DNA from: Escherichia phage vB_EcoM_EP32a
Sequence record: OR544954
Reading direction: 5' to 3' (one strand)
DNA length: 64,000 nt
The position numbers were made by a program, and so were the translations under genes. Under the pieces are notes generated by a model that was not told where the DNA came from, searched no databases, and saw only the letters and a program-made list of their open reading frames with translations. Positions 42,514 through 62,697 of the stretch are shown here, piece by piece; positions within the stretch are counted from its first letter, which is position 1, and each line of letters starts with the position of its first letter.

Positions 42514-42577
42514 GTTTACATAAGGATGATGGTGTGTTACTATCATCCTATCAAATAAACAGCCTCAAGGAAATAAA
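42514..42577 (+). promoter_or_regulatory. early promoter / stem-loop cassette (PeSL-like) upstream of ipI
   Basis: GTTTACA -35, 17-18 nt spacer, TACTAT -10; 8-bp inverted repeat aggatgat/atcatcct spans the -10; A-rich leader. Confidence 0.65.
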
Positions 42578-42865
42578 ATGAAAACCTATAAAGAATTTAT
42601 ATCACCTGTTGCTAACGTTTCTACTCTGACCGAAGCATCCCTTACTTCTGAAGTTATTAAAACAAATAAAGGACGTGAGGGTAAACCAATGATTAGTCTG
42701 GTTGATGGTGAAGAAGTAAAAGGTACTGTTTACTTAGGGGATGGATGGTCTGCTAAGAAAGATGGCGCTACTATTGTTATCTCTCCGGCTGAAGAGACTG
42801 CACTGTTTAAAGCTAAGCATATTTCTGTAGCTCAGCTTAAAATTATTGCAAAAACTCTTCTGTAA
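42578..42865 (+). CDS. ipI: internal protein I-like (capsid-targeted internal protein)
   Basis: 95 aa ORF; N-terminal capsid targeting sequence MKTYKEFIS and an LTE motif that fits the gp21 cleavage pattern. Confidence 0.8.
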   Translation: MKTYKEFISPVANVSTLTEASLTSEVIKTNKGREGKPMISLVDGEEVKGTVYLGDGWSAKKDGATIVISPAEETALFKAKHISVAQLKIIAKTLL

Positions 42866-42868
42866 GTA

Positions 42869-42935
42869 GTTTACATGCTGATAGGACTATGTTATAGTAG
42901 TCCTATCAAATCAAATGAGTAAATGGAGAAATAAA
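42869..42935 (+). promoter_or_regulatory. PeSL-like early promoter cassette
   Basis: GTTTACA, spacer, TATAGT; perfect 10-bp inverted repeat gataggacta/tagtcctatc; leader caaatcaaatgagtaaatggagaaataaaATG. Confidence 0.65.
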
Positions 42936-43121
42936 ATGAAACGCGCTGAACTGATTCGTAATGTTGCTGTAGTAATTGCTTCAATGGCTTTTAGTTTTTC
43001 GATGTTTGTAGGATTCATTTGTGGACTACTGACAACAACTGAAAACTCTATCTCATTGGTAGTAGCATTTCTAATCGGCTTAATCGCTATCGTTATGGAT
43101 AAAATTGCAAAAGGTGAGTAA
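42936..43121 (+). CDS. small membrane protein (one or two TM helices)
   Basis: ORF track starts at 42915; Met at 42936 follows the conserved leader RBS; hydrophobic core AVVIASMAFSFSMFVGFICGLL. Confidence 0.6.
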   Translation: MKRAELIRNVAVVIASMAFSFSMFVGFICGLLTTTENSISLVVAFLIGLIAIVMDKIAKGE

Positions 43122-43122
43122 A

Positions 43123-43485
43123 ATGAAATATCACGTATATGCTGATTTTGAAGCAAATCCTTCTAAAGACCCGGATTGTCGTTTGATACGTAATCCGTTT
43201 GATTCAGCAGCTCAAGCATGGACTTGGATTAAATCTAAATCGCCTGGTTATATGTTCTTTGAAGTAGTCGATGACAATGGTACACTGCATCCAGAACCTA
43301 CAGAAACTATTAATTTCCTTCTGTTTGCTGGTTATGACTGTTATCCTCTTGGTGGTATTGACGACCTTGTTGCTACAGGAAAAACTGTTGAGGCTCTTCG
43401 CGAAATTTATAAAAACGCAGAAGAAAATTTTGACTGGTATCATATTGTCAGTGCACATACTTTTGAAGTGGTGGAACACTCATGA
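43123..43485 (+). CDS. hypothetical protein
   Basis: ORF track starts at 43105; Met at 43123 preceded by ggtgag RBS; 120 aa. Confidence 0.6.
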   Translation: MKYHVYADFEANPSKDPDCRLIRNPFDSAAQAWTWIKSKSPGYMFFEVVDDNGTLHPEPTETINFLLFAGYDCYPLGGIDDLVATGKTVEALREIYKNAEENFDWYHIVSAHTFEVVEHS

Positions 43486-43552
43486 TTCTTTACGCTAAAG
43501 TAAAATCTGTCGAGAACGGATATGAAAGCGACTAGTCGATGACTATGGTATT

Positions 43553-43753
43553 TTGACTAATTTTGAAGTTGAAAAGGTTTATATCGACCGTTCATCTTCG
43601 CAAGTTAAATTACTCTGTGAAGATGATAAATTTAACACAGTGAACTTTGATTTCTTTATTGAAACAGAAAAAGGCCCTCTTGAATATGATATTTTCAAGA
43701 ATCCTTTGAAATTACGTTGCATTGAATATAATTACATTAATATGGTACGGTGA
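43553..43753 (+). CDS. hypothetical ORF with non-ATG (TTG) start, possibly decayed
   Basis: 66 aa ORF, no clear RBS and no ATG start. Confidence 0.3.
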   Translation: MTNFEVEKVYIDRSSSQVKLLCEDDKFNTVNFDFFIETEKGPLEYDIFKNPLKLRCIEYNYINMVR

Positions 43754-43850
43754 TTAAATGAATATTCGTTTAGGCAGTACAATTCCTAAGGGCTACGTAA
43801 TTGATGTCACTACCTAGGAAAATGATGGTGACAACTATAAAACCAAAACA

Positions 43851-44273: not shown

Positions 44274-44352
44274 GAATTATGTGTTATTATTAATTCATAC
44301 CCTCTATTACCAAAGGTGCTCTAAAGTGCCTTTCATAATAGAAAGTTATTTA

Positions 44353-44426
44353 GGCCCTGTAGCTCAATGGTTAGCAGCAGTCCCCTCATAAGGGAAAGGT
44401 TACCAGTTCGAATCTGGTCTGGGTCA
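44353..44426 (+). tRNA. tRNA with anticodon CAU (Met or Ile2-type)
   Basis: Hand-folded cloverleaf: acceptor ggccctg pairs with ctgggtc (one U-U), D-loop with GG, anticodon loop cuCAUaa, T-arm accag-TTCGAAT-ctggt; D-stem only 3 bp. Confidence 0.6.
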
Positions 44427-44432
44427 TATATT

Positions 44433-44509
<77 letters not shown>

Positions 44510-44527
44510 ACTTTAAGTGAGGAAAAT

Positions 44528-44923: not shown

Positions 44924-45042
44924 GGACTGGTCTTAATAAATCTTTACGATTTGTTAATATCCCCTTACATCACAGCAGAAACGGCGCACCGAATTATCGA
45001 TTCGAGGAAATATCTTTGCCGTAAGCCGAGTAGCGTTTTTGA

Positions 45043-45134
45043 CGGAACGTTCGGATATGGTCGAGATATGGCCTTTTAAAAATATTGAGTAGCGTCAACT
45101 GCTTAATAACCGGGTTCGAATCCCGGCGTTTCGT
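45043..45134 (+). ncRNA. tRNA-like element (canonical T-arm and 7-bp acceptor stem, non-canonical interior)
   Basis: ccggg-TTCGAAT-cccgg T-arm; cggaacg pairs 7/7 with cgtttcg; D and anticodon arms could not be folded canonically by eye. Possible type II tRNA, pseudo-tRNA or stable RNA. Confidence 0.35.
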
Positions 45135-45186
45135 ACAAACACTTTGCCTTAGTAGGTGGAACCCCGACAAGGTTGCCGCAAGGCTT

Positions 45187-45214
45187 AGCCCCTTCCGAAA
45201 GGTCGGGGCTTTTT
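45187..45214 (+). terminator. intrinsic terminator with GAAA tetraloop
   Basis: agcccc-ttCC-GAAA-GGtc-ggggct followed by TTTTT, directly upstream of the next RBS. Confidence 0.6.
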
Positions 45215-45226
45215 GAGGAAAATGTT

Positions 45227-45529
45227 ATGAGTCTTTACACTGAACTGAATAAAAAATCTGAAGAATCTGCTGAAACTATTTTTAAAAACGTGCAAAAGCG
45301 TATTTTAGAAAAGATGTATAACGCTGCAGCTAAAGGTGAAAAATCTTGCCGGTTTCCGATTAGGTGTTCTTCCGATTTATGCGCAAATACTATTGAATGG
45401 TTGGAAAGTGAAGGTCTTACGGTAGAGAAAAACCCGGCGACTTCTATTGGCAGTGAATCATATATTAGTATTTCTTGGGATAAATCAACAAAATTAAAAA
45501 TAATGATGTACAAGCACCAAGGATGGTGA
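45227..45529 (+). CDS. hypothetical protein
   Basis: ORF track starts at 45173; RBS gaggaaaa plus Met at 45227 (MSLYTELNKK...), about 100 aa. Confidence 0.6.
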   Translation: MSLYTELNKKSEESAETIFKNVQKRILEKMYNAAAKGEKSCRFPIRCSSDLCANTIEWLESEGLTVEKNPATSIGSESYISISWDKSTKLKIMMYKHQGW

Positions 45530-45565
45530 TACTATAGACTTATCAACTACAAAGGAGTAAACAAA
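45507..45565 (+). promoter_or_regulatory. early promoter cassette, near-duplicate of 10055-10114
   Basis: TGTACA -35, 17-nt spacer, TACTAT -10, then tagacttatcaactacaaaggagtaaacaaaATG. Confidence 0.6.
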
Positions 45566-45730
45566 ATGACTACTTTAATTATTTGGTTCGATGAAAATGA
45601 AGAAACATACTGTGTGAATATTGGTGAAAGTCCAATGCCTGAATTTGAATCCTCAGATAAAAACTCTGTTGTATCTTGGGCTGAAGGTTATAAAGCCGCT
45701 AAAGGTGACGTTGAAATAATTTACATCTAA
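45566..45730 (+). CDS. hypothetical small protein (54 aa), absent from the ORF track
   Basis: ATG at 45566 after the conserved leader and RBS aaggag; MTTLIIWFDENEETYCVNIG... Confidence 0.5.
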   Translation: MTTLIIWFDENEETYCVNIGESPMPEFESSDKNSVVSWAEGYKAAKGDVEIIYI

Positions 45731-45776
45731 GTAAGTTTATGTTATAGTAATCACATCAAATAAAGAGGAAAACAAA
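45720..45776 (+). promoter_or_regulatory. early promoter (TTTACA, 17 nt, TATAGT)
   Basis: Sigma70-type -35/-10 with 17-nt spacing, then RBS agagga and ATG at 45777. Confidence 0.55.
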
Positions 45777-46004
45777 ATGGCTAAAGTTAGTATTGATGTC
45801 GTTGATTATGAATACACCGAAGAAGTTATTCGCAACCGACACCCTGAAGTTCGTATCGATTCAGTCCAAGATTCCAAGTTCTGGACAACTGAGCTTAATC
45901 TGAGTGGTCCTTATGAAGCTGTTAAGAAGTTCATGGTTGAAGAATACTGCGAAGGCATGCACCCTGAAGATGCAGAATTTTATGTCAACTTGATTAAAAA
46001 ATAA
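45777..46004 (+). CDS. hypothetical protein
   Basis: 75 aa ORF with RBS agaggaaaa. Confidence 0.6.
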   Translation: MAKVSIDVVDYEYTEEVIRNRHPEVRIDSVQDSKFWTTELNLSGPYEAVKKFMVEEYCEGMHPEDAEFYVNLIKK

Positions 46005-46074
46005 TTTACAAACTCTCGAGAGCAGAGTATAATGCTCTCGTTGGATAATAAACCACCAATTGAAAGGTAATAAT
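46005..46074 (+). promoter_or_regulatory. early promoter / stem-loop cassette
   Basis: TTTACA, 17 nt, TATAAT; inverted repeat ctcgagagc/gctctcg around the -10. Confidence 0.6.
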
Positions 46075-46668
46075 ATGAACACACTGAAGAAACTTGTTGA
46101 ATTCATCCGCACTAAACTGGGTACTGCTATGGCTAAAAATCTGACTGTCGAAGAACAGTATAACGCAGCTGCAGATAAGTTGATTACCCAAATCAAAGAA
46201 CTAAAAACGGCTTCTGTTAAATCTATTAATGAAGAAAAACGTATTCGCGAACTTGTTAATGAAAAGAATAAGCAAGCCGCTTCTAAGGAACGTGAAATTC
46301 GTAAGCTCCTGGCTGAAGGACAAGATGTTACTATGCATGCTAAGCTTGGTCTTCTGTATCGTCGAACTGCCGAACAACTTAATACAAAAGCTGACGGGTA
46401 TGCCGCTATGCGAATTGAAATTGCTCGTAAGGTGGTTGAACTTGATGATGCTCGTCAGAATCTGGCAATCAAACTCGAATACATTCGTGAAACTCGAGCA
46501 GCCAATGCCCTTGGTATCTCTACGGCTGATGATGTAATTGAAATCGCTGCACTGACTAAGGTTGATATCGAAGACACTCTGACTCGTGTTGAAACGTTCA
46601 ATGGCACTCCAGCCGGTGTCGAAACCACTTCTGCTGATGTACAAGAATATATTAACTCTTTGAAATAA
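46075..46668 (+). CDS. coiled-coil protein, possibly PspA/IM30-like
   Basis: ORF track starts at 46060; Met at 46075 ([14 protein letters not shown]...); about 197 aa, predicted long helices; weak by-eye resemblance to PspA. Confidence 0.5.
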
Positions 46669-46717
46669 AATAATACGGAGGACTCCGGTCCTCCTTTTGG
46701 ATAATAAAGGAGTTAAC

Positions 46718-47320
46718 ATGCGAAACCAAAATAATGATATTGACTCAATGTTCGAAGAGTTCCGAAATAAGGTAAATCCACCTACGTCTTTAGTTGATTC
46801 ATTACGATATGTTGCAACTGGACGTAAATGGTACTGGTCGTCTTCTTATGAGACTACTGAGAAAACGGCCAGCCATAGCAGAAAATCTTTATTAGCCCCA
46901 GGTATTATGATTCATGATATCGGAGCTATTGCTAAACTAGTTGCAGACCATGATATTAGATTCACTGATTTCGTTGCTCCTACGTGGTCTGTTTGTTGTT
47001 TAAACACTGAATGGGAATATATCAGCGAACGCTCTAAAGATTATTATGGTTTTAGAGACAAGCTTTTAAGGTCTAACATGTTTTATATTGATACAGAAGT
47101 TCTGGTCAATAATAAAAAATACTACTTCACTTTAATCATCGATTCTGAAACTATGTATGAAGGCAAGCCTTTGCTTAAGAGAGTTGATGCTTTAAGTGCT
47201 ATTGATGCGCTTTATGAAACTATGGTTGTTAGTCCTAATTTCACTAACAATTTAATCCTTGAGCAATTTATTATGGAATGTAGAGAATATGTCAAAGCCA
47301 ACCCTATACATGCCAAGTAA
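46718..47320 (+). CDS. hypothetical protein
   Basis: ORF track starts at 46697; RBS aaggag plus Met at 46718 (same taaaggagttaacATG context as gene 26). Confidence 0.6.
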   Translation: MRNQNNDIDSMFEEFRNKVNPPTSLVDSLRYVATGRKWYWSSSYETTEKTASHSRKSLLAPGIMIHDIGAIAKLVADHDIRFTDFVAPTWSVCCLNTEWEYISERSKDYYGFRDKLLRSNMFYIDTEVLVNNKKYYFTLIIDSETMYEGKPLLKRVDALSAIDALYETMVVSPNFTNNLILEQFIMECREYVKANPIHAK

Positions 47321-47684: not shown

Positions 47685-48022
47685 CCGTATGGCCTTCTCT
47701 TGGTGAGAACATTCTAATTTTTATTATGAGTATTGGCATGGGATTTGCCTTTGGATTAGTTGGATTTCTTATTGACGGCGTTGTGTTAGGATTTATAGGG
47801 AACACTGGTGGATTCACAGACCAATGGCAGGACTTACGGTACACCCAAGCCTTTGCATCCATCGCATCATTTTGTACTGTAGTCTATTTTTACTACGATT
47901 TTATAAACCACAACAAGAAAAATAAAAAGGTTTACGCTTCTCAAATGATTAGTTATAATGAACTCCTAGCTAGACGTGAAAATGAAACAATCGAAAACTT
48001 TATTAAGGAATGTAGAAAATGA
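47663..48022 (+). CDS. small membrane protein, C-terminal ENFIKECRK family member
   Basis: 119 aa, RBS aagga; TM helices; C-terminus ...ETIENFIKECRK. Confidence 0.6.
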   Translation: MQKPQLLTVWPSLGENILIFIMSIGMGFAFGLVGFLIDGVVLGFIGNTGGFTDQWQDLRYTQAFASIASFCTVVYFYYDFINHNKKNKKVYASQMISYNELLARRENETIENFIKECRK

Positions 48023-48817: not shown

Positions 48818-48875
48818 GTTTACAACAAGATAGGGCTATGTTATAGTAGTCCTATCAAAACAAATGGAGTCCACA
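48818..48875 (+). promoter_or_regulatory. PeSL-like early promoter cassette
   Basis: GTTTACA, spacer, TATAGT; inverted repeat gatagggcta/tagtcctatc (one mismatch); leader caaaacaaatggag. Confidence 0.65.
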
Positions 48876-49115
48876 ATGATTTATTACGAAAGTATCGGAA
48901 CCAAAGTGGTTGGCAAAACCATTACTCGTGAAAAGTTTGCAAAGATATTCGATATGCGTTATAAAAAATCTGAACACAAAGGCATCCGATTCGAAGATGC
49001 GCACTGTACAATTTGCCCTTATAATGAAGACATAAACGGTACAATCGTTCCATTGGTAGAAGCTTCACATGATGACCTCTGGGATGAATATAATATCGCA
49101 TGTCGTGAAATTTAA
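48876..49115 (+). CDS. hypothetical protein
   Basis: ORF track starts at 48864; Met at 48876 after the conserved leader; about 79 aa. Confidence 0.55.
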   Translation: MIYYESIGTKVVGKTITREKFAKIFDMRYKKSEHKGIRFEDAHCTICPYNEDINGTIVPLVEASHDDLWDEYNIACREI

Positions 49116-50112: not shown

Positions 50113-50180
50113 GTTTACAAGGTCTGTAGTTGTTGATACTATAGACCTATCAAAACAAATGAGTGAATGGAGATATAAAA
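50113..50180 (+). promoter_or_regulatory. PeSL-like early promoter cassette
   Basis: GTTTACA, spacer, TACTAT; inverted repeat ggtctgtag/ctatagacc; leader caaaacaaatgagtgaatggagatataaaaATG. Confidence 0.65.
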
Positions 50181-50381
50181 ATGACTACTTTGAATAAACG
50201 TTTCGGTAAAGCTAAACCTGGTTGTGCAGCAGAACGTCGTTATGTTTTCGCTCAGTTAGAAGATGTAGAGTATCAGATTAATCAAGTTCACATTACTGGT
50301 ATCGAGCCTATGTGTGGCCTTGAAGCTCTTCGTGAAGTTCGTGATGGGTATCGTCGTGACATCGAAGAAATGTCAAAATAA
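50181..50381 (+). CDS. hypothetical small protein
   Basis: ORF track starts at 50163; Met at 50181 after the conserved leader; 66 aa. Confidence 0.55.
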   Translation: MTTLNKRFGKAKPGCAAERRYVFAQLEDVEYQINQVHITGIEPMCGLEALREVRDGYRRDIEEMSK

Positions 50382-50382
50382 G

Positions 50383-50439
50383 TGTACAAACTGATAGGAC
50401 TATGTTATAGTAGTCCTATTAAAACATGAGGAGAATATT
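50383..50439 (+). promoter_or_regulatory. PeSL-like early promoter cassette
   Basis: GTGTACA, spacer, TATAGT; 9-bp inverted repeat ataggacta/tagtcctat as in the 42869 copy; RBS gaggag. Confidence 0.65.
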
Positions 50440-50745
50440 ATGAAATTAGGCGAAACCAACCGAATTGGTCTTTTAACAATATTTGTATCACTTTTTTACG
50501 CAGCTCTTTCTGTTGCAGTATTACAAAAGGCTTACAGTATGGATGGTGTTCCTGGTTGTATATTTTTATCACCATTTTTGCTATTCGTTGGAGCTTTGTT
50601 ATTATATGCCACGTCTGGTTTCGACAATAATGTCTGGGTCAATTATAAACGTAAATTGTCTGAAGAAGAACACGCAGAAGCTCGTAAAAAAGCTATTGAA
50701 TCTACCAATCTAGAAAATTTCATTAAAGAATGTCGAGGAAAATAA
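50440..50745 (+). CDS. small membrane protein, C-terminal ENFIKECRGK family member
   Basis: 101 aa; two TM helices; C-terminus ...STNLENFIKECRGK. Confidence 0.6.
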   Translation: MKLGETNRIGLLTIFVSLFYAALSVAVLQKAYSMDGVPGCIFLSPFLLFVGALLLYATSGFDNNVWVNYKRKLSEEEHAEARKKAIESTNLENFIKECRGK

Positions 50746-50789
50746 TATGAATAGTTCTAAAGTGTTTAATAGTCAAGCTCGTGCAGTAG

Positions 50790-51347
50790 GTGGTTTTGCT
50801 CACGCGATTAAAAATGACCAGATTAAAAACGAGCCTATGTTCTTCAACTGTAGTATTTGATTCACGAGTCCATATGCTGATGCCTGGTTGGTATCCTGCT
50901 ATTCCAGGTTATCACCATGACGATGTACCACGCCCGGATATTCCAGTTGGTCAACACTTTATTACTGCAGGACAACCTGACTATGACAATCCTCGCTATT
51001 TGTCTGAACACATTCTTGGTCTTGTTAACGCTGATGTGTGTCCTACTCATTTTGCAACAGGAACTGCAGAGTTCAGTCAGATTCCTGATGGCGAACTTAT
51101 CTATCGCCAGTGGCACAAAGAAGTCCTCGAAAAAATCGAAAAAGGTGAACTAGAGAAATGGGAAGCTCCGGACCGTACTCTTCTTCAGTTTGATTGGCAA
51201 ACATGGCACACTGGTTCTCGTGCAATTAGTAATGGATGGCGTTGGTTCGGACGTGTATCTCGTAATACAGACCGAGTTAAAAAGATTACCAATGAAATTC
51301 GTGTCAATGCTCAAGTTTATCTGGAATTCCCTATGGAAGGCTGGTAA
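50790..51347 (+). CDS. hypothetical protein, possibly frameshifted
   Basis: 185 aa ORF whose 5' end overlaps, in another frame, a 37-codon ORF (50747-50860) that starts 1 nt after the upstream stop; no RBS for internal Mets. Confidence 0.4.
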   Translation: MVLLTRLKMTRLKTSLCSSTVVFDSRVHMLMPGWYPAIPGYHHDDVPRPDIPVGQHFITAGQPDYDNPRYLSEHILGLVNADVCPTHFATGTAEFSQIPDGELIYRQWHKEVLEKIEKGELEKWEAPDRTLLQFDWQTWHTGSRAISNGWRWFGRVSRNTDRVKKITNEIRVNAQVYLEFPMEGW

Positions 51348-51838
51348 TGATTAACAAAACATATTGGTCTAATATTGACGACGGCAATGAAGGTATTTCA
51401 TACTATTCAGTAGATTGGACAGGATGTCCATCCTACTTAGTGAAACGTATTTGCCAAGAATTTAAAATCGACCAGCCAGCAGGTATTATCGTGAACAGAT
51501 ACATTAATGGATATCAACCTATCGATGAAGTAATACGAACAACTCAAGCTGAGCTTGAAAAGTTTTTCAATAAGTGCCAATGGATAACAGGATGGATTAT
51601 ATTTGTACCGTCTATATGGTTTTTCAGTACTAAGGTGAGTTCTTTCGGTTTTGTTGATATTATTGCTATCTTATTAGCATCTACTATCGTAAGTATTATT
51701 GGCGGTATAATTGGTGGAGGTACTGTAGGCATCATTATTAATCTTATTAAAAGTAGTTTACAAGAACATAAAGACAAGATAAAAGCCAAGAATAATGAAG
51801 TTGAACGTTTTATTACCGAATGCAGGAATTTGAGATGA
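51347..51838 (+). CDS. membrane protein, C-terminal ERFITECRNLR family member
   Basis: 163 aa; TM helices with GGIIGGGTVGIII segment; ATGA overlap with upstream stop; C-terminal motif as family. Confidence 0.6.
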   Translation: MINKTYWSNIDDGNEGISYYSVDWTGCPSYLVKRICQEFKIDQPAGIIVNRYINGYQPIDEVIRTTQAELEKFFNKCQWITGWIIFVPSIWFFSTKVSSFGFVDIIAILLASTIVSIIGGIIGGGTVGIIINLIKSSLQEHKDKIKAKNNEVERFITECRNLR

Positions 51839-52071
51839 GTATAGCAATTTACATTAAATCAGAATCATGTGATAGTTATCTGTACACATACGATAAAGAT
51901 GTGTCAGAAGAAAAAATCAAAGACGACCTTAATACGGATCTTGATATGTTCTGTCCTATTGCAGATTACAAACTTGCGGTCTCTAATAGTGAAAGTCCAT
52001 CTAAAGAAACGCGCATTGAAGAATTTATGTCCGAATTAATGGCCAAATCATGGGACCGAGATGATGAGTAA
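51835..52071 (+). CDS. hypothetical acidic protein
   Basis: ORF track starts at 51820; Met at 51835 overlaps the upstream stop (ATGA). Confidence 0.5.
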   Translation: MSIAIYIKSESCDSYLYTYDKDVSEEKIKDDLNTDLDMFCPIADYKLAVSNSESPSKETRIEEFMSELMAKSWDRDDE

Positions 52072-52553: not shown

Positions 52554-53042
52554 ATGAATATATTTGAAATGCTTCGTAATGACGAAGGTCTTAGACTGAC
52601 TTTATACAAAGACACTGAAGGCTTTTGGACGATTGGCATAGGCCATTTAGTAACAAAGAACCCATCTTTAGCCGTAGCTAAAGCTGAACTTGACAGAATG
52701 ATCGGACGTAAATGCAACGGTACAATTACCCTTGATGAGGCTGAAAAGCTATTTAATGAAGACGTTGATAAAGCTGTTCGCGGAATCTTGGGTAATGCTA
52801 AACTTAAACCGGTATATGATTCTTTAGATGCAGTTCGTCGATGTGCATTGGTCAATATGGTCTTCCAAATGGGTGTAACAGGCGTCGCCGGTTTTACTAA
52901 TTCTCTTCGTATGCTTCAACAGAAACGTTGGGACGAGGCGGCAGTAAATCTAGCCCAATCTAAATGGTACCGTCAGACACCTAATCGCGCGAAACGCGTA
53001 ATCTCAACATTTAAAACAGGAACTTGGAAAGCGTATATATGA
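52554..53042 (+). CDS. e: endolysin (T4 lysozyme, gene e)
   Basis: ORF track starts at 52542; Met at 52554 gives [32 protein letters not shown]..., near-identical to T4 lysozyme including the catalytic E11/D20 region. Confidence 0.95.
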
Positions 53043-53320
53043 AAACATATAGTGAATTTTTATCAGAATCTATTCTTAACGAAGCTACTGACACATTTGC
53101 AACTAAGCTAGGTGCAGCTTTGGTTGAAGCTGAAAGTCTATTAGCACGTATTTCTGAACTTGCTAGTAAGATAGATACTCGCAAATTTGAACGTACCAGC
53201 GATATCGCTAAGCTTGAAGCCTTGTTGCGTATGTGTGATAAACCGGAAGAAATCGCTAAGAACGGCTCGCTGATGAAACAACGTCTTGAAAAATATATTT
53301 CAGGCGCTTCAGAAAAATAG
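53039..53320 (+). CDS. internal protein (IPII/IPIII-like)
   Basis: ORF track starts at 53024; Met at 53039 overlaps the e stop (ATGA); N-terminal capsid targeting sequence [10 protein letters not shown] followed by ILNE, which fits a gp21 cleavage site. Confidence 0.7.
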
Positions 53321-53321
53321 T

Positions 53322-53378
53322 GTTTACTTCCTCCAAGGGTTTTGATACTATACATTCATCAACTACTTGGAGGAAATT
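53322..53378 (+). promoter_or_regulatory. early promoter with RBS-sequestering hairpin upstream of denV
   Basis: GTTTAC, 18-nt spacer, TACTAT; 10-bp perfect inverted repeat ttcctccaag / cttggaggaa; the 3' arm contains the denV Shine-Dalgarno. Confidence 0.65.
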
Positions 53379-53792
53379 ATGACTCGTATCAATTTAACAC
53401 TTGTTTCTGAACTGACCGACCAACATCTTATGGCTGAGTATCGTGAATTACCACGCGTATTTGGTGCAGTCCGTAAACATGTTCAAAACGGTAAACGTGT
53501 AAAGGATTTTAAAATCTCTCCAACATTTATCTTAGGCACAGGTCACGTAACATTCTTTTACGACAAACTCGAATTTTTACGTTTACGTCAAATCGAGCTA
53601 ATCGCTGAATGCTTGAAACGTGGTTTCAAAATCAAGGACACGACTGTTCAGGATATTTCCGACATCCCTGCCGAATTTCGTAATAATTACGTCCCGTCCG
53701 AAGCGTCCATTGCGATAAGTCAAGCACGCTTAGATGAAAAAATTGCTCAACGTCCGACTTGGTACAAATACTATGGTAAATCAATTTACTAA
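53379..53792 (+). CDS. denV: endonuclease V (pyrimidine dimer DNA glycosylase)
   Basis: ORF track starts at 53367; Met at 53379 gives [35 protein letters not shown]..., near-identical to T4 DenV. Confidence 0.95.
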
Positions 53793-53799
53793 GGAAAAA

Positions 53800-54060
53800 A
53801 TGAAAATGTATCAAGAATTTATCATTGAAGCAGATGCCAAAGACCCTAAATTTAAAGTTAAAGCTTTCATTGGTGATGCGGAAGACTTTGGCTCATTAAA
53901 ACGTAATGGGTATTCTTTCTTAGGTGGTGATGGTAAAGAAATCAACACCTATGCAAAACGTAGTGAAATTGCTTATGTTGTAGTAAGTCCTAAAGTAGAT
54001 GTTGACGATATTGGATACGATTTTAACAACTTCGGAATTATTTCTGGCGGTAAAGCTTAA
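53800..54060 (+). CDS. internal protein (IP-like)
   Basis: ORF track starts at 53734; RBS aagga plus Met at 53800; capsid targeting sequence MKMYQEFIIE; 86 aa. Confidence 0.65.
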   Translation: MKMYQEFIIEADAKDPKFKVKAFIGDAEDFGSLKRNGYSFLGGDGKEINTYAKRSEIAYVVVSPKVDVDDIGYDFNNFGIISGGKA

Positions 54061-54063: not shown

Positions 54064-54123
54064 GTTTACGCTTAAGTATTAATATGGTATAATTACTCTA
54101 TCAAAACAAACAAGGAAACAAAA
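54064..54123 (+). promoter_or_regulatory. early promoter cassette (GTTTAC, 18 nt, TATAAT)
   Basis: Consensus-like -35/-10 followed by the conserved leader ctatcaaaacaaacaaggaaacaaaaATG. Confidence 0.65.
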
Positions 54124-54201
54124 ATGAAAACATATAAAGAATTTATCGCCGATCCAACCTGTAATAAGGTCGAGCCCAAGTGCGGTAATGGGTTTACATA
54201 G
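54124..54201 (+). pseudogene. truncated internal-protein gene remnant (25 codons)
   Basis: ORF starts with the capsid targeting sequence MKTYKEFIA but stops after 25 codons (MKTYKEFIADPTCNKVEPKCGNGFT*). Confidence 0.5.
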
Positions 54202-54257
54202 CGAGTCGAAGGACCTAACATGTGCCACGGAATGGCCCAAACCTTAAGAGAAATAAT

Positions 54258-55695: not shown

Positions 55696-55817
55696 AGACA
55701 TCAAAGGCTACAAGCCGCATACCGATGATAAAATCAGTAAAGTGAACGCTATTAAAGATGCAGAAGTTCGTGTCGTGCAGTATTTCGACCTGAGGAAAAA
55801 TACTAATGGCTAGAGTA

Positions 55818-55874
55818 GTTTACTTCTCCTCTAGTTGTGTTACTATAGACCTGTCAACTAGAGGAGAAATCAAA
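55818..55874 (+). promoter_or_regulatory. early promoter with 14-bp RBS-sequestering hairpin upstream of regB
   Basis: GTTTAC, spacer, TACTAT; perfect 14-bp inverted repeat ttctcctctagttg / caactagaggagaa; the 3' arm contains the SD gaggag. Confidence 0.65.
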
Positions 55875-56333
55875 ATGACTATCAATTCAGACGTTTTTAT
55901 CCGTCGTAATAAACTCCGTCGAATCTTTGAAACGGAGTTCCGCAAAATAAATGCCGGTATAAAAGATGCTGCAAAGTCTCTTGGACTACCAGGCTTTCAT
56001 ATCAAGTATTCTCAACATCTCTTAGATCGTGCCATCCAGAGAGAAATAGATGAGAATTACGTTTTTGAATTATTTCATAAAGTAAAAAATCACGTTAAAG
56101 AAGTTGCAGAATTTTTATCAATGCCGGCACGTCCAGATGTTGATGAAGATTTTGTCGAAGGTGTCGAGTATCGTCCAGGCCGTTTAGAAATAACTGACGG
56201 AAATCTTTGGTTAGGACTTACAGTTTGTCGCGAAAATCCGACATTCAAAATGAAGACTCTTCAATGTAGAATGGCTATTATTAACAGTAAACGACTACCA
56301 GGAAAAGCTTCTAAAGCAGTGATTAAAATCTAG
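55875..56333 (+). CDS. regB: RegB site-specific endoribonuclease
   Basis: ORF track starts at 55806; Met at 55875 gives MTINSDVFIRRNKLRR...FHIKYSQHLLDRAIQREIDE..., closely matching T4 RegB (about 153 aa). Confidence 0.9.
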   Translation: MTINSDVFIRRNKLRRIFETEFRKINAGIKDAAKSLGLPGFHIKYSQHLLDRAIQREIDENYVFELFHKVKNHVKEVAEFLSMPARPDVDEDFVEGVEYRPGRLEITDGNLWLGLTVCRENPTFKMKTLQCRMAIINSKRLPGKASKAVIKI

Positions 56334-57897: not shown

Positions 57898-58100
57898 GTC
57901 AAACAAAAATTCTTACAGGTGCTAAATGCGAAAAATGCGAATGGCCTGTAGTTTTTGCTTTATGCAATGACGAAATGGCTTGTGATTTTGATTATTGGTG
58001 TTACTGTTCGAACAAAGGTTGTAGCAATCATAAAGGTGAAGGGTTTTACTCAGGATTTTACCCTTACCCGGATTTCGTTAAAGAAGGTGAACCTAAATGA
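57894..58100 (+). CDS. Cys-rich small protein (putative zinc-binding)
   Basis: CEKCEW...CNDEMACDFDYWCYCSNKGC: 9 Cys in 68 aa; ATGA overlap. Confidence 0.5.
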   Translation: MSQTKILTGAKCEKCEWPVVFALCNDEMACDFDYWCYCSNKGCSNHKGEGFYSGFYPYPDFVKEGEPK

Positions 58101-58279
58101 AATTGACTAAAGAAGAGAAAACTAAACTGTTCGAACTTATCCATGACCTATTGGACGAGCAAGCAGCCACCAATGCGTACGATGAATATGCTCCTTTAAC
58201 AGATGAAGAATATCAAGCATTGATGGAATCATTTGACAGGAAAGAACAAGAACTCATTGACTACGTGAATTCACTATAA
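58097..58279 (+). CDS. hypothetical acidic small protein
   Basis: 60 aa; ATGA overlap with upstream stop. Confidence 0.5.
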   Translation: MKLTKEEKTKLFELIHDLLDEQAATNAYDEYAPLTDEEYQALMESFDRKEQELIDYVNSL

Positions 58280-58288
58280 GGGACTCTT

Positions 58289-59425: not shown

Positions 59426-59470
59426 TTTACTAGCCCCTTCCTTATGGTTGGGGCTTTTTGGCATTTAGCA

Positions 59471-59526
59471 GTTTACTTTTCCTCAGGTTGTGTTATAGTA
59501 GTCCTTACTTACTAGAGGAGAACATT
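59471..59526 (+). promoter_or_regulatory. early promoter cassette (GTTTAC, 17 nt, TATAGT)
   Basis: -35/-10 then leader ctagaggagaacattATG. Confidence 0.6.
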
Positions 59527-59706
59527 ATGACACGTAAAGAAAAAATTTCTAAGTTAATGTTTTTGATTGAAGAGTACGCTAATGCGGTATCTGATTGGGA
59601 AAATGCTCATGGTTGCGAAGATGGAGACATCGACATTAACAGAGCTATGAAAAAGATGGCTGACGCCCACACCGAATTGCAAATGTATGTTAACGAGATT
59701 ATGTGA
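59527..59706 (+). CDS. hypothetical small protein
   Basis: ORF track starts at 59458 (across the promoter); Met at 59527 after RBS gaggag; 59 aa. Confidence 0.5.
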   Translation: MTRKEKISKLMFLIEEYANAVSDWENAHGCEDGDIDINRAMKKMADAHTELQMYVNEIM

Positions 59707-59713
59707 GGATATT

Positions 59714-59920
59714 ATGCTTTACGATTATACTGGAAAATCTGAAGACGGTGTACTTGAGCTTTTATCTGAAAGCGCTGAAGATGACGATACGGTGGTGATG
59801 TTTTGTAAAAATGGTCCTGGGGATAAGGGATGGATTTATCTTCGCCAAGAAAATGACCTAATTGTTTTGGACCCTAAACAAGTTGAAGAACTTTATCAAC
59901 ATTTAAAACACAATCGGTAG
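59714..59920 (+). CDS. hypothetical acidic protein
   Basis: ORF track starts at 59687; Met at 59714 after RBS gagga. Confidence 0.5.
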   Translation: MLYDYTGKSEDGVLELLSESAEDDDTVVMFCKNGPGDKGWIYLRQENDLIVLDPKQVEELYQHLKHNR

Positions 59921-59977
59921 TTTACGTCTTGGTAGGACTATGATATAGTAATCCTACCAAAACAAATGGAGAACAAA
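59920..59977 (+). promoter_or_regulatory. PeSL-like early promoter cassette
   Basis: GTTTAC, spacer, TATAGT; inverted repeat ggtaggacta / taatcctacc; leader aaaacaaatggagaacaaaATG. Confidence 0.65.
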
Positions 59978-60088
59978 ATGAAACTTTTGCTTATCGCTTA
60001 TGTTGTAGTACAATATAATTATCCGATGTTTACTTATAACATGGTAAACGGCATAGTGAATCTTATTGAAACGAGTATGGTAAAATGA
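59978..60088 (+). CDS. small hydrophobic peptide (36 aa), absent from the ORF track
   Basis: ATG at 59978 directly after the cassette leader; MKLLLIAYVVVQYNYPMFTYNMVNGIVNLIETSMVK. Confidence 0.4.
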   Translation: MKLLLIAYVVVQYNYPMFTYNMVNGIVNLIETSMVK

Positions 60089-60264
60089 CCCGTGAACAAG
60101 CTAATAAATTGATGGACCTTATCCATGACTTACGTGAAGCCGATTCAGATTTGAATGATGTAGCTTATCATGCGGTAAATGATAACGGAGACTTTTATGA
60201 AAATCAGGTTGATGCTTGCCAGAATGCTTTGGTGAATTTTGTTGAAACTTTAATTGGTGAATAA
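60085..60264 (+). CDS. hypothetical acidic protein (59 aa), absent from the ORF track
   Basis: ATGA overlap with the upstream peptide stop; MTREQANKLMDLIHDLREADSDL... Confidence 0.4.
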   Translation: MTREQANKLMDLIHDLREADSDLNDVAYHAVNDNGDFYENQVDACQNALVNFVETLIGE

Positions 60265-60265
60265 T

Positions 60266-60796
60266 ATGAAAACTGTAATTGAAACAACCGAGTTGTTTGG
60301 CGATTTATGTATCGAAAAACGTGGTTATGCTTACGTTCTGACACAAGAAGATGATGCTGTTACTATTCTTCCTATGGAACTGGACAAGATTTTGAAACTC
60401 AATCCGCCCGGCCATGCATCTGTAATTAACATTGATGAAGACCTTCAAGTTCGTTTTTATCACGGTCTTTATAGTGGGGTTAATATCGAAACAGAAGATG
60501 AATGCCTTTCTATCAATAATTGGAAAACATTCGTCACTAAGGTGAAAGAATTCATAGAATCTGAAACTGCCAAAAAGGCCAAACTTCAATGGGCTAAATG
60601 CCGTAATGCTTTTATTACAAATCAGGACCGCCCTGACTATACAACAGTCCTAGGCGTTAATCCTTCTTATGAAGACGGTGATGTCGTAGTTATTCGCCAA
60701 ATTGATGACCTTCGTCAACATATCGTTACATTAGACAAAGATGAAGCAGTTGCTCTTAAAGCTTATCTTGATTCTATTATCCCGACTTTGAAATAA
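60266..60796 (+). CDS. hypothetical protein
   Basis: ORF track starts at 60254; Met at 60266 overlaps the upstream stop (TAATATG); about 176 aa. Confidence 0.55.
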   Translation: MKTVIETTELFGDLCIEKRGYAYVLTQEDDAVTILPMELDKILKLNPPGHASVINIDEDLQVRFYHGLYSGVNIETEDECLSINNWKTFVTKVKEFIESETAKKAKLQWAKCRNAFITNQDRPDYTTVLGVNPSYEDGDVVVIRQIDDLRQHIVTLDKDEAVALKAYLDSIIPTLK

Positions 60797-60806
60797 GGAA
60801 ATTATT

Positions 60807-61280
60807 ATGATTATCAATGAAAACTCTTGGCACTTTAAAATTTATGCCGCGTTCAATAGTACGTGGAATCGTCCGAAAACATTATGTGCTTATTTTTGGA
60901 AAACGCTAATCCCGGTATTGGCTGCTTCAATTATTGGATTTGCGATTTTAGCAGCAGTCACAATCATTGGCCAGGAAATTTTAACTAAATTCTTTGTTTT
61001 TAGCAGTCTATGGACATTAGTTCCAGCCTCAATTGGTGTAGGCATTTTGATTGTAGCAGTCATGGCTTTTATTGCTACCGGGGCGGTAATTGGTCCGTCT
61101 TGGTTGTTAGACAAATATAACGACAGAAAATATTATAAAGAAATTGAGTTCATTGCACAAAACCAAGAACGAATTAAAAATGGACTTGAGCCTATTGAAC
61201 GTAAGAAATCATTAATAGGTGAATACCTTAAAGCTCGTAAAGAAAAAGTCTGTCCTACTCTTGAATATAAGGCTAAATGA
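60807..61280 (+). CDS. membrane protein (about three TM helices)
   Basis: 157 aa; hydrophobic segments LIPVLAASIIGFAILAAVTIIG and VGILIVAVMAFIATGAVIG. Confidence 0.55.
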   Translation: MIINENSWHFKIYAAFNSTWNRPKTLCAYFWKTLIPVLAASIIGFAILAAVTIIGQEILTKFFVFSSLWTLVPASIGVGILIVAVMAFIATGAVIGPSWLLDKYNDRKYYKEIEFIAQNQERIKNGLEPIERKKSLIGEYLKARKEKVCPTLEYKAK

Positions 61281-62266
61281 TGAAAACAATTATGAAAGGC
61301 TACTTTGGTAGCCACCTTTATGGAACGTCTACTCCTGAATCTGACGTCGATTTTAAAGAAATTTATGTCCCTCATGCTCGTGATATCTTGACCGGTAACG
61401 TTAAAGAACACATGAGCAAGAACACGAATAACACATCTTCTAAGAACACAAAAGACGACGTGGACCACGAGTTGTATAGTCTCAAATATTTCTTTAAACT
61501 AGCTGCGGATGGTGAAACCGTCGCATTAGATATGCTTCACACTCCACAAAGTCTAGTAGTTAAATCTGATTTGCCTGATGTATGGAAGTATATTCAAGAT
61601 AACAGGTCTCGTTTCTATACCACTAACATGAAATCTTATTTAGGGTATGTCCGTAAGCAAGCTTCTAAATATGGTGTCAAGGGTTCTCGACTGGCTGTTC
61701 TTCGTCAAGCCCTTAAACGTTCTAATGAATGGGGACGATACTTTGATAATGGTGCCGTAATTCGTTTATCACATATGAAGAACGTTCTGCCTGTAGGTGA
61801 ATTTGCTTTGTGGGTTGAAACCGAAAACGAGAAAACAGGTAAGCAAACATTCTATAATCTGTTAGACCGTAAATTCCAAGACACATTAACCAATAAAGAG
61901 TTCAATGCCATCCTGGTTAAACTAGAAGAGAACTATGGTGAACGTGCTCGTAAGGCAGAAGCTAACGAAGGTATTGACTGGAAAGCATTGAGTCATGCAT
62001 GTCGTGGTGGACTTCAATTATTGGAAATTTACAAAACCGGCGACCTGGTTTACCCACTTCAGGATGCTCCGTTTATTCTCGATGTTAAGCTTGGTAAACA
62101 TACGTTTAAAACCGTACAAGAATTCCTAGAAGATATCGTTGACCAAGTTGAACATGCGTCAGAACAAGCTGCCAAGAACGGTATGCAACAAAAAGTAGAT
62201 ATGAGTTTCTGGGATGATTTCCTTGAGCAAGTCTATCTCGAAAATCATAATTCTTACTATAAATAA
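61277..62266 (+). CDS. predicted nucleotidyltransferase (Pol-beta superfamily motif)
   Basis: 329 aa; N-terminal GSHLYGTSTPESDVDF fits hG[GS]-x(9-13)-Dh[DE]; ATGA overlap with upstream membrane protein. Confidence 0.55.
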   Translation: MMKTIMKGYFGSHLYGTSTPESDVDFKEIYVPHARDILTGNVKEHMSKNTNNTSSKNTKDDVDHELYSLKYFFKLAADGETVALDMLHTPQSLVVKSDLPDVWKYIQDNRSRFYTTNMKSYLGYVRKQASKYGVKGSRLAVLRQALKRSNEWGRYFDNGAVIRLSHMKNVLPVGEFALWVETENEKTGKQTFYNLLDRKFQDTLTNKEFNAILVKLEENYGERARKAEANEGIDWKALSHACRGGLQLLEIYKTGDLVYPLQDAPFILDVKLGKHTFKTVQEFLEDIVDQVEHASEQAAKNGMQQKVDMSFWDDFLEQVYLENHNSYYK

Positions 62267-62297
62267 GTAGATAAATAACCCTTAACTTGAGGTAAAT

Positions 62298-62579
62298 ATG
62301 AAAAAATTAGCAATTGGTTTATTCGCAGTAATGATGGCATTCTCTGTTGGTGCTACCACGGGTGCAGCCAGCGGTAGTGCAGGAGCTGGTGGTAACCAGT
62401 CTTCTGGGCCTTCCAACGGTTCGGTAAATGCATCACATTCTCAGGGTATTGAGAATATCAAATCGAGCTATATTAATAGCACGGCCGGACAAGCAACTGA
62501 AGCATGGTCAAAGGGTCGAGTAGTTACTCGCTCCGTATTCTGTGATATGCCTAATTATGTTGCTAAGTGCGATAAGTAA
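62298..62579 (+). CDS. small secreted Gly/Ser-rich protein
   Basis: 93 aa; signal-peptide-like MKKLAIGLFAVMMAFSVGA; low-complexity Gly/Ser segment; two C-terminal Cys. Confidence 0.5.
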   Translation: MKKLAIGLFAVMMAFSVGATTGAASGSAGAGGNQSSGPSNGSVNASHSQGIENIKSSYINSTAGQATEAWSKGRVVTRSVFCDMPNYVAKCDK

Positions 62580-62584
62580 ATGTG

Positions 62585-62604
62585 GGGACCTTCGGGTCCC
62601 TTTA
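62585..62604 (+). terminator. intrinsic terminator (UUCG tetraloop)
   Basis: gggacc-TTCG-ggtccc followed by ttta. Confidence 0.6.
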
Positions 62605-62630
62605 GGGGGTTAAAATATTTTTAAAAAGTA

Positions 62631-62697
62631 GTGTACATGCTTTTAGGATATGTTATTATAGACCTATCGAAACGAAATGAGTAAATTGGAGAATAAA
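62631..62697 (+). promoter_or_regulatory. early promoter cassette with MotA-box-like TGCTTTT
   Basis: GTGTACA, 17 nt, TATTAT; leader ctatcgaaacgaaatgagtaaattggagaataaaATG. Confidence 0.55.

Follow-up and report, generated by a model that had tools for sequence, protein, structure and literature searches.

Probable PeSL-type early promoter cassettes, nine of fifteen with an embedded hairpin, in the accessory region of an RB69-group Escherichia phage

Promoter-early-stem-loop elements (PeSLs) are composite cassettes of T4-like phages, each made up of an AT-rich region, a sigma-70 promoter, a stem-loop belonging to one of five positional subclasses, a Shine-Dalgarno (SD) sequence and an ATG (PMC2839356; PMC4122927). 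Strong promoter activity in vivo, attenuation or termination of transcription from upstream, and ORF-containing mini-circles that arise when neighbouring cassettes recombine have also been ascribed to them. They have been described in RB49 and phi1 (Arbiol, Comeau, Kutateladze, Adamia and Krisch, 2010, PMC2839356) and in PST and T4 (Comeau, Arbiol and Krisch, 2014, PMC4122927); our literature search returned only this PeSL work of the Krisch laboratory together with cyanophage work, and no description of PeSLs in RB69-group phages was found. Here we report on 15 copies of a similar cassette in Escherichia phage vB_EcoM_EP32a (sequence record OR544954), of which a stretch of 64,000 nucleotides (nt), called the window in what follows, was analysed.

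Two further kinds of described system are close to these cassettes. Firstly, the early promoters of T4 have an UP/-35/TGn/-10 architecture (Hinton, 2010, PMC2988021), and in RB69 57 early promoters have been predicted, 13 of them ahead of novel open reading frames (ORFs), with a logo showing GTTTAC and C at -3 to -1 (Nolan et al., 2006, PMC1524935). These promoter papers mention neither embedded inverted repeats nor a role in recombination, and the terms stem-loop, palindrome and inverted repeat appear nowhere in Nolan et al. (2006). Secondly, T4 genes e, soc, 49 and I-TevI have SD-sequestering hairpins combined with an internal promoter (Uzan and Miller, 2010, PMC3014915).

Positions 42000-64000 of the window are 96-98% identical to the Mosigvirus (RB69 group) Escherichia phages APCEc01, vB_EcoM_SCS57, JS09 and mar005P1 and, on this identity, the window belongs to a Mosigvirus (RB69/APCEc01-like) phage. 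The cassettes concentrate between 42514 and 62697, a + strand early accessory region in which gene names were carried over from the annotation of APCEc01 and JS09. The gene order in its first half is gene 1, 57A, 57B, ipI, tRNA.4-.2, two tRNAs, frd.3, e.6-e.2, nudE and e, followed in the second half by denV, internal-protein genes, vs.8-.3, regB, vs.1, vs, tk, rI, mobD.2a, mobD.1, nrdC.11 and nrdC.10; positions 1-42000 hold mostly late structural genes on the - strand. Fourteen of the cassettes lie in the hyperplastic 57B-ipI-tRNA-e-denV-regB-tk-nrdC region, and the fifteenth sits within the late structural module, ahead of an ORF that is not part of the core. Nearly all + strand intergenic gaps of at least 45 nt from 42.5 to 62.7 kb hold one cassette each, the main exception being the gap at 46668-46718, which holds a genuine terminator instead.

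This array very probably consists of the T4-type sigma-70 early promoters of the RB69-group accessory early region, organised as PeSL-type cassettes. That the copies are PeSLs had been proposed in an initial annotation of this DNA, and the identification holds at the sequence level: the promoter, the AT-rich upstream region, the SD and ATG, the hyperplastic location and the association with insertions and deletions are all present, and a stem-loop is found in nine of the 15 copies. As in T4 and RB69, the promoter elements are GTTTAC, TGn, the -10, a C-rich stretch at -3 to -1 and an AT-rich UP region, and the copies likewise precede orthologues of T4 early genes as well as novel ORFs, so similar an arrangement that the cassettes are almost certainly the RB69 early promoters in a close relative.

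Compared with the PeSLs of RB49 and phi1, the array has the same composite structure (AT-rich region, sigma-70 promoter, stem-loop, SD, ATG), the same commonest position of the stem, between -35 and -10 or overlapping the -10, the same concentration in hyperplastic regions of small accessory ORFs and the same topology of two cassettes versus one chimeric cassette at insertions or deletions between close relatives (Arbiol et al., 2010, PMC2839356). It differs in its -35, which is TTGACA in RB49/phi1 and the T4-type GTTTAC here, in its stems, which there pair a G-run with a C-run and here are of mixed sequence (for example GATAGGACTAT), and in that six of the 15 copies lack a significant stem and two or three have a stem that pairs with the SD. 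With the PeSLs of PST and T4 the cassettes share the promoter consensus TTTACW N17 TAYWAT and a link to internal-protein and other variable loci; however, in PST/T4 the stem-loop is depicted just ahead of the promoter, as a terminator followed by a promoter, whereas most stems here are inside the promoter (Comeau et al., 2014, PMC4122927). The terminator-then-promoter arrangement is found in this phage only at 59431-59526 and perhaps at 62584-62697. On these features the array resembles the RB49/phi1 type in geometry and the PST/T4 type in promoter sequence.

Each cassette is ~60-70 bp long and fuses a promoter to the leader and ribosome-binding site of the gene that it serves. The 25 nt upstream of the -35 are 73% AT, against a background of 62% (Mann-Whitney p 1.5e-4), with an A fraction of 41% vs 32%. 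The -35 is exactly GTTTAC in 9/15 copies and one base away from it in the remaining six (ATTTAC, GTGTAC, ATGTAC), the gap between -35 and -10 measures 18 nt in 12 copies and 17 nt in three, and an extended -10 (TGn) is present in every copy except that at 46004. All 15 have a -10 of the form TAnnnT (TACTAT, TATAGT, TATAAT or TATTAT), typically followed by the discriminator AG(A/T)CCTAT, which also occurs as (A/T)G(A/T)CCTAT. If transcription starts at the seventh nt after the -10, the predicted start is the A of ATCAA and the predicted leader is 21-35 nt long. This would place the starts of cassettes 1 to 15 at 10091, 42550, 42905, 45542, 45755, 46040, 48854, 50149, 50418, 53358, 54100, 55853, 59506, 59956 and 62666. 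An SD and the ATG of the downstream ORF are found at the 3' end of all 15 copies, although the copy at 54064 serves only a 25-codon remnant.

The SD is GGAG in 11/15 leaders, with 8-11 of 11 matches to the consensus of strong RegB/S1 sites, GG*AGRAYARAA (PMC3014915), and the predicted sites at 59968 (cassette 14) and 62688 (cassette 15) match it at 11 of 11. The common leader caaaacaaatgagtRaatggag...aaaATG that had been ascribed to the array is present in three copies (42908, 50152 and 62670; repeat family D8), while the others share only CAA-rich sequence and GGAG/GAGG. We considered and rejected the shared 'ATGAGTRAATGGAG' leader as a coding N-terminus, for although one copy carries it in the frame of the real start, the copy at 50113 does not. 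The cassettes combine -10 modules and leader modules in mosaic fashion (families D1-D5 and D8).

All 15 copies listed in the initial annotation were found at the positions that it gave, four of them 1 nt off because its count had started from TTTACA/TGTACA. A strict pattern ([GAT]TTTAC/GTGTAC/nTGTAC, 16-19 nt, TAYTAT/TATAGT/TATAAT/TATTAT) was compared with 100 dinucleotide-preserving shuffles and gave 18 matches on the + strand, where a mean of 1.2 was expected (shuffle maximum 4), and three on the - strand (shuffle mean 1.5, maximum 5), so that the motif is more frequent than in shuffled sequence. A two-block weight matrix built from the 15 copies, with a threshold of 9.6 (the 95th percentile of shuffle maxima; top shuffle score 12.6), recovered from the window exactly these 15, with scores of 24-54, and none on the - strand. 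With leave-one-out scoring 13/15 pass, those at 46004 (5.7) and 59471 (9.2) falling short. A generic sigma-70 scan (TTGACA/TATAAT) was not enriched, with 76 found vs 67.6 expected from shuffles, and therefore it is the extended consensus that carries the signal. Moreover, in a repeat search that used no motif the cassettes came out as the top repeat families of the window (D1-D5, D8). The extra strict-pattern matches at 7213, 41362 and 47930, and the three on the - strand, were rejected as hexamer-only sites under the matrix threshold. One of these, at 47930-47959 (GTTTACG...TATAAT), lies in an ORF, exactly where a 250-bp deletion in LF82-5 and phiE142 has its right breakpoint.

The inverted repeat, described previously as occurring often, folds significantly in nine of the 15 copies (42514, 42869, 46004, 48818, 50113, 50382, 53322, 55818 and 59920), with z <= -3 against shuffles of the same copy and -15 to -22 kcal/mol over ~60 nt; the other six (10055, 45506, 45719, 54064, 59471 and 62631) have no significant hairpin by this measure. 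Two geometries can be distinguished. In class A (42514, 42869, 46004, 48818, 50113, 50382 and 59920) a stem of 8-12 bp is formed between a 5' arm in the spacer and a 3' arm that runs from the -10 to about +3. In class B (53322 at denV, 55818 at regB and, weakly, 59471) the 5' arm directly follows the -35 and the 3' arm is the SD region. The earlier statement that the repeat spans the -10 thus applies to class A, and in the three other copies it is the spacer that pairs with the SD region. The stems at 42881, 48830 and 50391, held to be identical, are near-identical, with one position differing in each (GATAGGGCTA at 48829; ...CCTATT at 50412). The cassettes, all on the + strand, and two features that adjoin them are as follows.

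Cassette 1, 10055..10114, + strand: outside the main array, between the - strand late genes 24 and 23, ahead of a lone 89-aa ORF (10115-10384); matrix score 44.5; no significant hairpin (z -1.5).
Cassette 2, 42514..42577, + strand: upstream of an ipI-type internal protein gene (42578-42865); class A hairpin 42523-42534 / 42538-42549 (AGGATGATGGTG / TACTATCATCCT), z -3.45.
Cassette 3, 42869..42935, + strand: upstream of tRNA.4 (42936-43121); class A hairpin 42879-42890 / 42897-42908, 12 bp, z -3.5, with most of the -10 in the loop.
Cassette 4, 45506..45565, + strand: variant -35 ATGTAC; overlaps the 3' end of the upstream ORF; upstream of a 54-aa ORF (45566-45730); no significant hairpin.
Cassette 5, 45719..45776, + strand: upstream of frd.3 (45777-46004); no significant hairpin.
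Cassette 6, 46004..46074, + strand: upstream of e.6 (46075-46668); sole copy without TGn; class A hairpin 46017-46024 / 46033-46040 (CGAGAGCA / TGCTCTCG), z -3.5.
Cassette 7, 48818..48875, + strand: upstream of an RB69ORF135c-like ORF (48876-49115); matrix score 53.9; class A hairpin 48829-48839 / 48846-48856 with one G.T pair, z -3.8.
Cassette 8, 50113..50180, + strand: upstream of a 66-aa ORF (50181-50381); class A hairpin 50120-50130 / 50138-50148, z -3.5.
Accessory ORF, 50181..50381, + strand: flanked by cassettes 8 and 9.
Cassette 9, 50382..50439, + strand: variant -35 GTGTAC; upstream of an RB69ORF133c-like ORF (50440-50745); class A hairpin 50392-50403 / 50410-50421, z -4.2.
Cassette 10, 53322..53378, + strand: upstream of denV (53379-53792); class B hairpin 53328-53337 / 53366-53375 (TTCCTCCAAG / CTTGGAGGAA), 10 bp, z -4.3, with the SD inside the 3' arm.
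Cassette 11, 54064..54123, + strand: the only ORF behind it is a chimeric remnant of an internal-protein gene (54124-54201), 25 codons (MKTYKEFIADPTCNKVEPKCGNGFT*); no significant hairpin.
Cassette 12, 55818..55874, + strand: upstream of regB (55875-56333); class B hairpin 55824-55837 / 55855-55868 (TTCTCCTCTAGTTG / CAACTAGAGGAGAA), 14 bp, z -4.7, with the SD GGAG in the 3' arm.
Intrinsic terminator, 59431..59460, + strand: GCCCCTTCC...GGTTGGGGCTTTTT, directly upstream of cassette 13; one of a three-copy family (D10).
Cassette 13, 59471..59526, + strand: upstream of mobD.2a (59527-59706); weak class B pairing 59477-59484 / 59515-59522 (TTTTCCTC / GAGGAGAA, one G.U), z -0.15, not significant alone; the orthologue in LF82-5 has a perfect TTCTCCTC.
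Cassette 14, 59920..59977, + strand: upstream of a 36-aa ORF (59978-60088); class A hairpin 59929-59937 / 59952-59960, z -3.1.
Cassette 15, 62631..62697, + strand: variant -35 GTGTAC; upstream of nrdC.10 (62698-63678); matrix score 50.5; no significant hairpin, with a terminator-like hairpin ahead of it at ~62584-62600.

The predicted start lies 15-22 nt downstream of the end of the 5' arm in all of the hairpins, and thus the hairpin should be possible only in RNA that reads through from further upstream and never in the cassette's own transcript. Comparison with other T4-like contigs from IMG/VR (regB loci from 43 contigs with RegB 40-97% identical, denV loci from ~36 and e.6 loci from 11) shows the embedded stems to be selected as structures, as judged from the way in which their arms change together. 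Among 142 distinct cassettes, 32% have a class A helix of at least 8 bp in which spacer and discriminator of the same cassette pair, compared with 3.3% of non-cognate combinations, and 22% have one of at least 10 bp, compared with 0.6%, with 21 different discriminator sequences involved. The arms at the e.6 promoter, for example, are CGAGAGCA/TGCTCTCG in this phage and GTGTAGGAG/CTCCTACAC, at the same place, in a lineage with an e.6 protein that is ~65% identical.

For regB, where the T4-type cassette is present at >=95% identity in 502 phage records, the class B design is kept in 17 of 21 distinct cassettes with RegB at least 55% identical, while the outer stem changes in a compensatory manner (CTAGTTG/CAACTAG, CTTTATG/CATAAAG, TGTAAGT/ACTTACA, TTTTAGT/ACTAAAA, CATTTG/CAAATG). 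Column-wise pair counting in a MAFFT alignment of these cassettes was abandoned because the SD register shifts between lineages, and was replaced by a test of cognate against non-cognate helices. In the 21 distinct cassettes the cognate helix has a mean of 10.1 bp, against 6.5 bp when paired with the SD region of other lineages (permutation p <= 1e-4), the 6.5 bp representing the conserved CTCC/GGAG core. The denV SD is sequestered in almost every lineage, by a 5' arm that lies either just after the -35 or over the -10/+1 but always upstream of the predicted start.

These observations allow a mechanism to be proposed. Given their consensus identity with the T4 and RB69 early promoters, host RNA polymerase would be expected to fire at each cassette immediately after infection. 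Where the inverted repeat lies inside the promoter, as in nine of the 15 copies, the hairpin would be confined to read-through RNA, if the start is where we place it. At denV and regB, where the 3' arm is the SD, read-through RNA would be translationally silent and shielded from RegB, while the locally started immediate-early transcript would stay translatable; selection for the pairing follows from the covariation, and the silencing effect is proposed by analogy with T4 e, soc, 49 and I-TevI. In the seven class A copies the hairpin most likely acts on read-through RNA as an attenuator, a processing barrier or a 3' stabiliser.

Class B is similar to the e/soc/49/I-TevI switches in having the SD in a helix with its 5' strand upstream of a nearby promoter, strongly at 53322 (10 bp) and 55818 (14 bp) and weakly at 59471. 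The 5' arms of these helices end 16-22 nt before the predicted start. The analogy would extend to upstream-started transcripts being silent and near-promoter ones translatable. Moreover, the targets of those switches are often nucleases or the lysis enzyme, and regB and denV are nuclease genes. However, the internal promoter of the T4 switches is late (gp55), giving an early-off, late-on pattern, whereas that of class B is early, which would give own-promoter-only, immediate-early expression, and we therefore describe class B as working like these switches, not as a member of them (Uzan and Miller, 2010, PMC3014915). A more general proposal, which we put forward tentatively and at somewhat less than even chances, is that the hairpins are an 'own-promoter-only' insulation device of T4-like early regions, an early counterpart of the e/soc/49/I-TevI switches. 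If this is the case, only transcripts from the built-in early promoter would escape the structure, and at regB and denV, where it hides the SD, both translation and the self-cleavage of RegB would be limited to immediate-early transcripts, with read-through RNA silent. In keeping with this, compensatory evolution has kept the regB hairpin across phages with RegB only 55% identical. We found no description of an SD-hiding hairpin at the early promoters of regB or denV in the reviews consulted, the primary regB literature not being covered.

It is also possible, but in our estimation unlikely, that the stems are transcription terminators or attenuators which insulate each gene at the level of transcription and not of translation or RNA processing. 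The PeSL211/210 stem of RB49 lowered the expression of lacZ to the same extent as the rrnB T1 terminator (Arbiol et al., 2010, PMC2839356). The distribution of hairpins here may be consistent with it, in that cassettes 13 and 15 (59471 and 62631), which have none, are already preceded by a terminator-type hairpin and cassette 1 (10055), also without one, has no adjacent co-directional gene; a hairpin is present in 0/3 such copies vs 9/12 of the others (Fisher p 0.044), a hint only, from a small sample with a debatable classification. However, a terminator scan which flagged the real terminators of the region (46677-46694 and 45193-45208) flagged no cassette stem, and a T-run follows none of the stems. 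The stems are followed by A-rich leaders of the CAAAACAAA type, and the U-run is equally missing in other lineages, so that these are not canonical terminators. Furthermore, regB and denV keep the SD in a helix across three geometries, for which a terminator has no need. The selection on structure thus speaks against a simple terminator and in favour of control of read-through RNA, and for regB and denV this control would couple translation to the gene's own early promoter.

The cassettes also appear to have a second role, as joints at which ORF-plus-cassette units would be gained, lost and swapped between relatives. Chained blastn alignments of positions 42000-64000 to APCEc01, JS09, ST2, SHSML-52-1, LF82-5, phiE142, RPN187 and BEU50 yielded 46 unique breakpoints. 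Ten of these fall in cassettes or the 20 nt upstream of them, which together make up 5.2% of the sequence (binomial p 1e-4), and a breakpoint is found at 10/14 cassette junctions compared with 15/47 other gene junctions (Fisher p 0.01). The clearest case is the ORF at 50181-50381, which is missing in ST2, LF82-5, phiE142 and RPN187. These phages have in its place one chimeric cassette, in which the upstream flank comes from cassette 8 and, past a crossover at the -35, the hairpin and leader come from cassette 9; the textbook PeSL topology is therefore present.

Several other differences between relatives meet at cassettes. In SHSML-52-1 and LF82-5 a 362-bp insertion within the cassette at 42869 adds an internal-protein gene with its own cassette, and the stem of the cassette downstream is a compensated variant, GATAGGGTA/TACCCTATC. 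Three relatives have replacements of the stretches from cassette 45506 to 45719 and from cassette 45506 to 46004. Breakpoints are located at 45488 (cassette 4) in APCEc01, SHSML-52-1, phiE142 and RPN187, and in SHSML-52-1 and phiE142 a replacement ends on its right at 45755 (cassette 5). At 54146-54219 all eight relatives have 354-1068 bp more DNA, containing one to three internal-protein genes. A difference of 371-472 bp at 55771-55811 from all relatives has its right breakpoint at cassette 55818, and one at 62264-62638 ends at cassette 62631, where a replacement in ST2, SHSML-52-1 and phiE142 has 62638 as its right breakpoint. Cassette-pattern matches occur at ~1.3 per kb in DNA found only in the relatives (not de-duplicated, and counting matches at segment edges), compared with 0.64 per kb in the window.

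The suggestion of the initial annotation that cassettes have recently been duplicated or recombined is upheld by the pair 10075-10121 and 45526-45572, which are 98% identical over 47 nt (family D4). The identity runs from the -10 to just past the ATG, where it stops abruptly, and extends to leader positions outside the consensus as well as to the first two codons, which indicates that sequence has been copied between distant sites. Cassettes are not the only repeated DNA at breakpoints. An intrinsic terminator exists in three copies (family D10: 3375-3404, 45186-45215 and 59431-59460; TAGCCCCTTCCGAAAGGTCGGGGCTTTTTG, 77-87% identical); the copy at 45186-45215 marks a breakpoint at 45214 that is common to all relatives, and the terminator at 59431-59460 is found in duplicate in LF82-5, on both sides of a 594-bp insertion. 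Because the cassettes and this terminator are the only sizeable repeated DNA in the region, phage recombination is taken to use them as joints. In addition, four genes share a conserved internal-protein coding leader (42575-42600, 53036-53061, 53797-53822 and 54121-54146), MKTY(K/Q)EF (family D7, ATGAAAAC(A/C)TATAAAGAATTTAT), and breakpoints adjoin it at 42600, in a replacement just past MKTYKEF, and at 54152. From this placement, the coding leader acts as a second recombination linker beside the promoter cassette. Clean deletions of an ORF are also seen at overlapping stop/start junctions, at 51838-52058 and 57899-58281.

An improbable reading of the above, though one with some evidence on its side, is that these are ordinary early promoters and nothing further, similar to each other through functional constraint on strong sigma-70/Alt-responsive promoters and good ribosome-binding sites and not through copying or use in recombination, with breakpoints located there since viable insertions and deletions lie between genes. 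The 15/47 junctions that have a breakpoint and no cassette, and the clean ORF deletions, would agree with this, as would the fact that the best-conserved positions are the functional ones (-35, TGn, -10, discriminator and SD); Nolan et al. (2006, PMC1524935) took the RB69 equivalents simply as early promoters. It does not account for the identity of 10075-10121 and 45526-45572 at non-consensus positions, for the mosaic make-up of the cassettes in -10 and leader modules, for the single chimeric cassettes in relatives or for the excess of breakpoints at cassette junctions.

A very improbable possibility is that the inverted repeats act as DNA, either as operators at which a dimeric regulator shuts early promoters off or as cruciform or hairpin targets of a recombinase or endonuclease in site-specific mobilisation. 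The palindromes have their centre at or close to the -10, where operators are classically found, a stem-binding recombination protein has been speculated upon (Arbiol et al., 2010, PMC2839356), and the shut-off of T4 early promoters is not fully explained (PMC3014915). However, an operator would conserve its sequence, whereas here at least 21 different arm sequences co-vary to keep the pairing, and this absence of a conserved arm sequence favours a folded nucleic acid over a protein operator. The register of the stem relative to the -10 also shifts between copies, and crossovers are at different places (-35, leader, terminator) and not at one site. RNA is favoured because the SD and AUG take part in the pairing of class B and of the related denV geometry, which would be relevant in RNA only, and non-Watson-Crick positions lean towards G.T over A.C. 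Finally, there is practically no likelihood that the copies are a chance pattern in AT-rich DNA, a view that the unenriched generic hexamer scan might have favoured but which is already refuted by the strict-pattern enrichment with its strong strand bias and by the matrix scores, the copies being, moreover, intergenic, correctly oriented and kept as orthologues in hundreds of phages.

Several points weigh against our preferred interpretation of the array as PeSL-type early promoter cassettes with stems that act on read-through RNA. Start sites, promoter strength and timing are all predicted. Six of the 15 copies have no significant hairpin, which is therefore not obligatory, and the terminator role published for such stems is unsupported by the sequence here, none of the stems having a T-run or being terminator-like. 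The preference for G.T over A.C mismatches is a trend only (39:26, p 0.07; strict set 9:4, p 0.13). Since breakpoints are also found at ordinary gene junctions, and at the repeated terminator and the internal-protein leader, part of their association with cassettes could be due to selection in favour of viable joints between genes. Cassettes 8 and 9, which provide the clearest crossover, at the -35, share only ~7-8 bp of homology there; phage homologous recombination is stated to need <50 bp of homology (Arbiol et al., 2010, PMC2839356).

The motif is otherwise ordinary for a T4-like phage: the RB69 early promoters date from a prediction of 2006, and reports of 2010 and 2014 cover PeSLs from three other lineages. 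The outline understanding of T4-like phages is unchanged. The comparative evidence suggests selected stems that act on read-through RNA, among them the conserved SD-hiding hairpin at the early promoters of regB and denV, and this is the one step beyond the literature consulted, a modest addition. In practical terms, the cassettes would provide a ready transcription map of the accessory early region in Mosigvirus phages, the joints would explain differences in gene content between near-identical therapeutic or typing phages, and the PeSL idea would be extended to a fourth T4-like lineage.

Cassette 1 and its 89-aa ORF, between late genes 24 and 23, form a moron-like case. Morons of lambdoid phages were reportedly treated by Hendrix and colleagues in 2000. 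Like the present unit, a moron is a single accessory gene with its own promoter, and sometimes a terminator, between conserved genes, but it has no conserved flanking linker, whereas here the promoter cassette itself is the repeated linker (discussed in Arbiol et al., 2010, PMC2839356). After this lone + strand ORF there is a hairpin at 10395-10412 (GGGAGACCGAAGTCTCCC), with a 78% similar copy at 29768-29817 (D14), which looks like the terminator of gene 23 because its T-run is on the - strand.

A number of minor observations were made on the genome. The taxonomy lines of two of the relatives look inconsistent with their sequence: ST2 (OM982647.1) is filed as Guernseyvirinae/Kagunavirus and phiE142 (NC_055709.1) as Carettavirus, and both are 95-96% identical to this Mosigvirus region. 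The tRNA array (44353-44509) varies widely among near-identical phages, with two tRNAs here, three in ST2 and 10 in RPN187. On its 3' side the stretch 44924-45215 (~290 nt) has no convincing ORF and ends in a terminator. At the Rfam gathering threshold the matches were the two tRNAs only, with no family for the cassettes or for this non-coding stretch, which could be a counterpart of RNA C/D, the small stable RNAs of the T4 tRNA region (PMC3014915).

Three genes in the region are altered relative to their counterparts. A tRNA.2-like ORF (43482-43760) is frameshifted compared with APCEc01_154, the frame being lost after MILYAKVKSVENGYESD and resuming in another frame at ...LVDDYGILTNF, and is either a pseudogene or a sequencing error. 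An RB69ORF151c-like ORF has an in-frame amber TAG at 43815-43817, where APCEc01_155 has a Trp codon (…VIDVTT*ENDGDNY here vs …VIDVTTWENDGDNY), and is otherwise intact over 172 codons. The RB69ORF132c-like gene at 50747-51347 is without ~84 nt that are found in 7/8 relatives, and a change of frame at ~50850 divides it into pieces of 37 and 157 aa.

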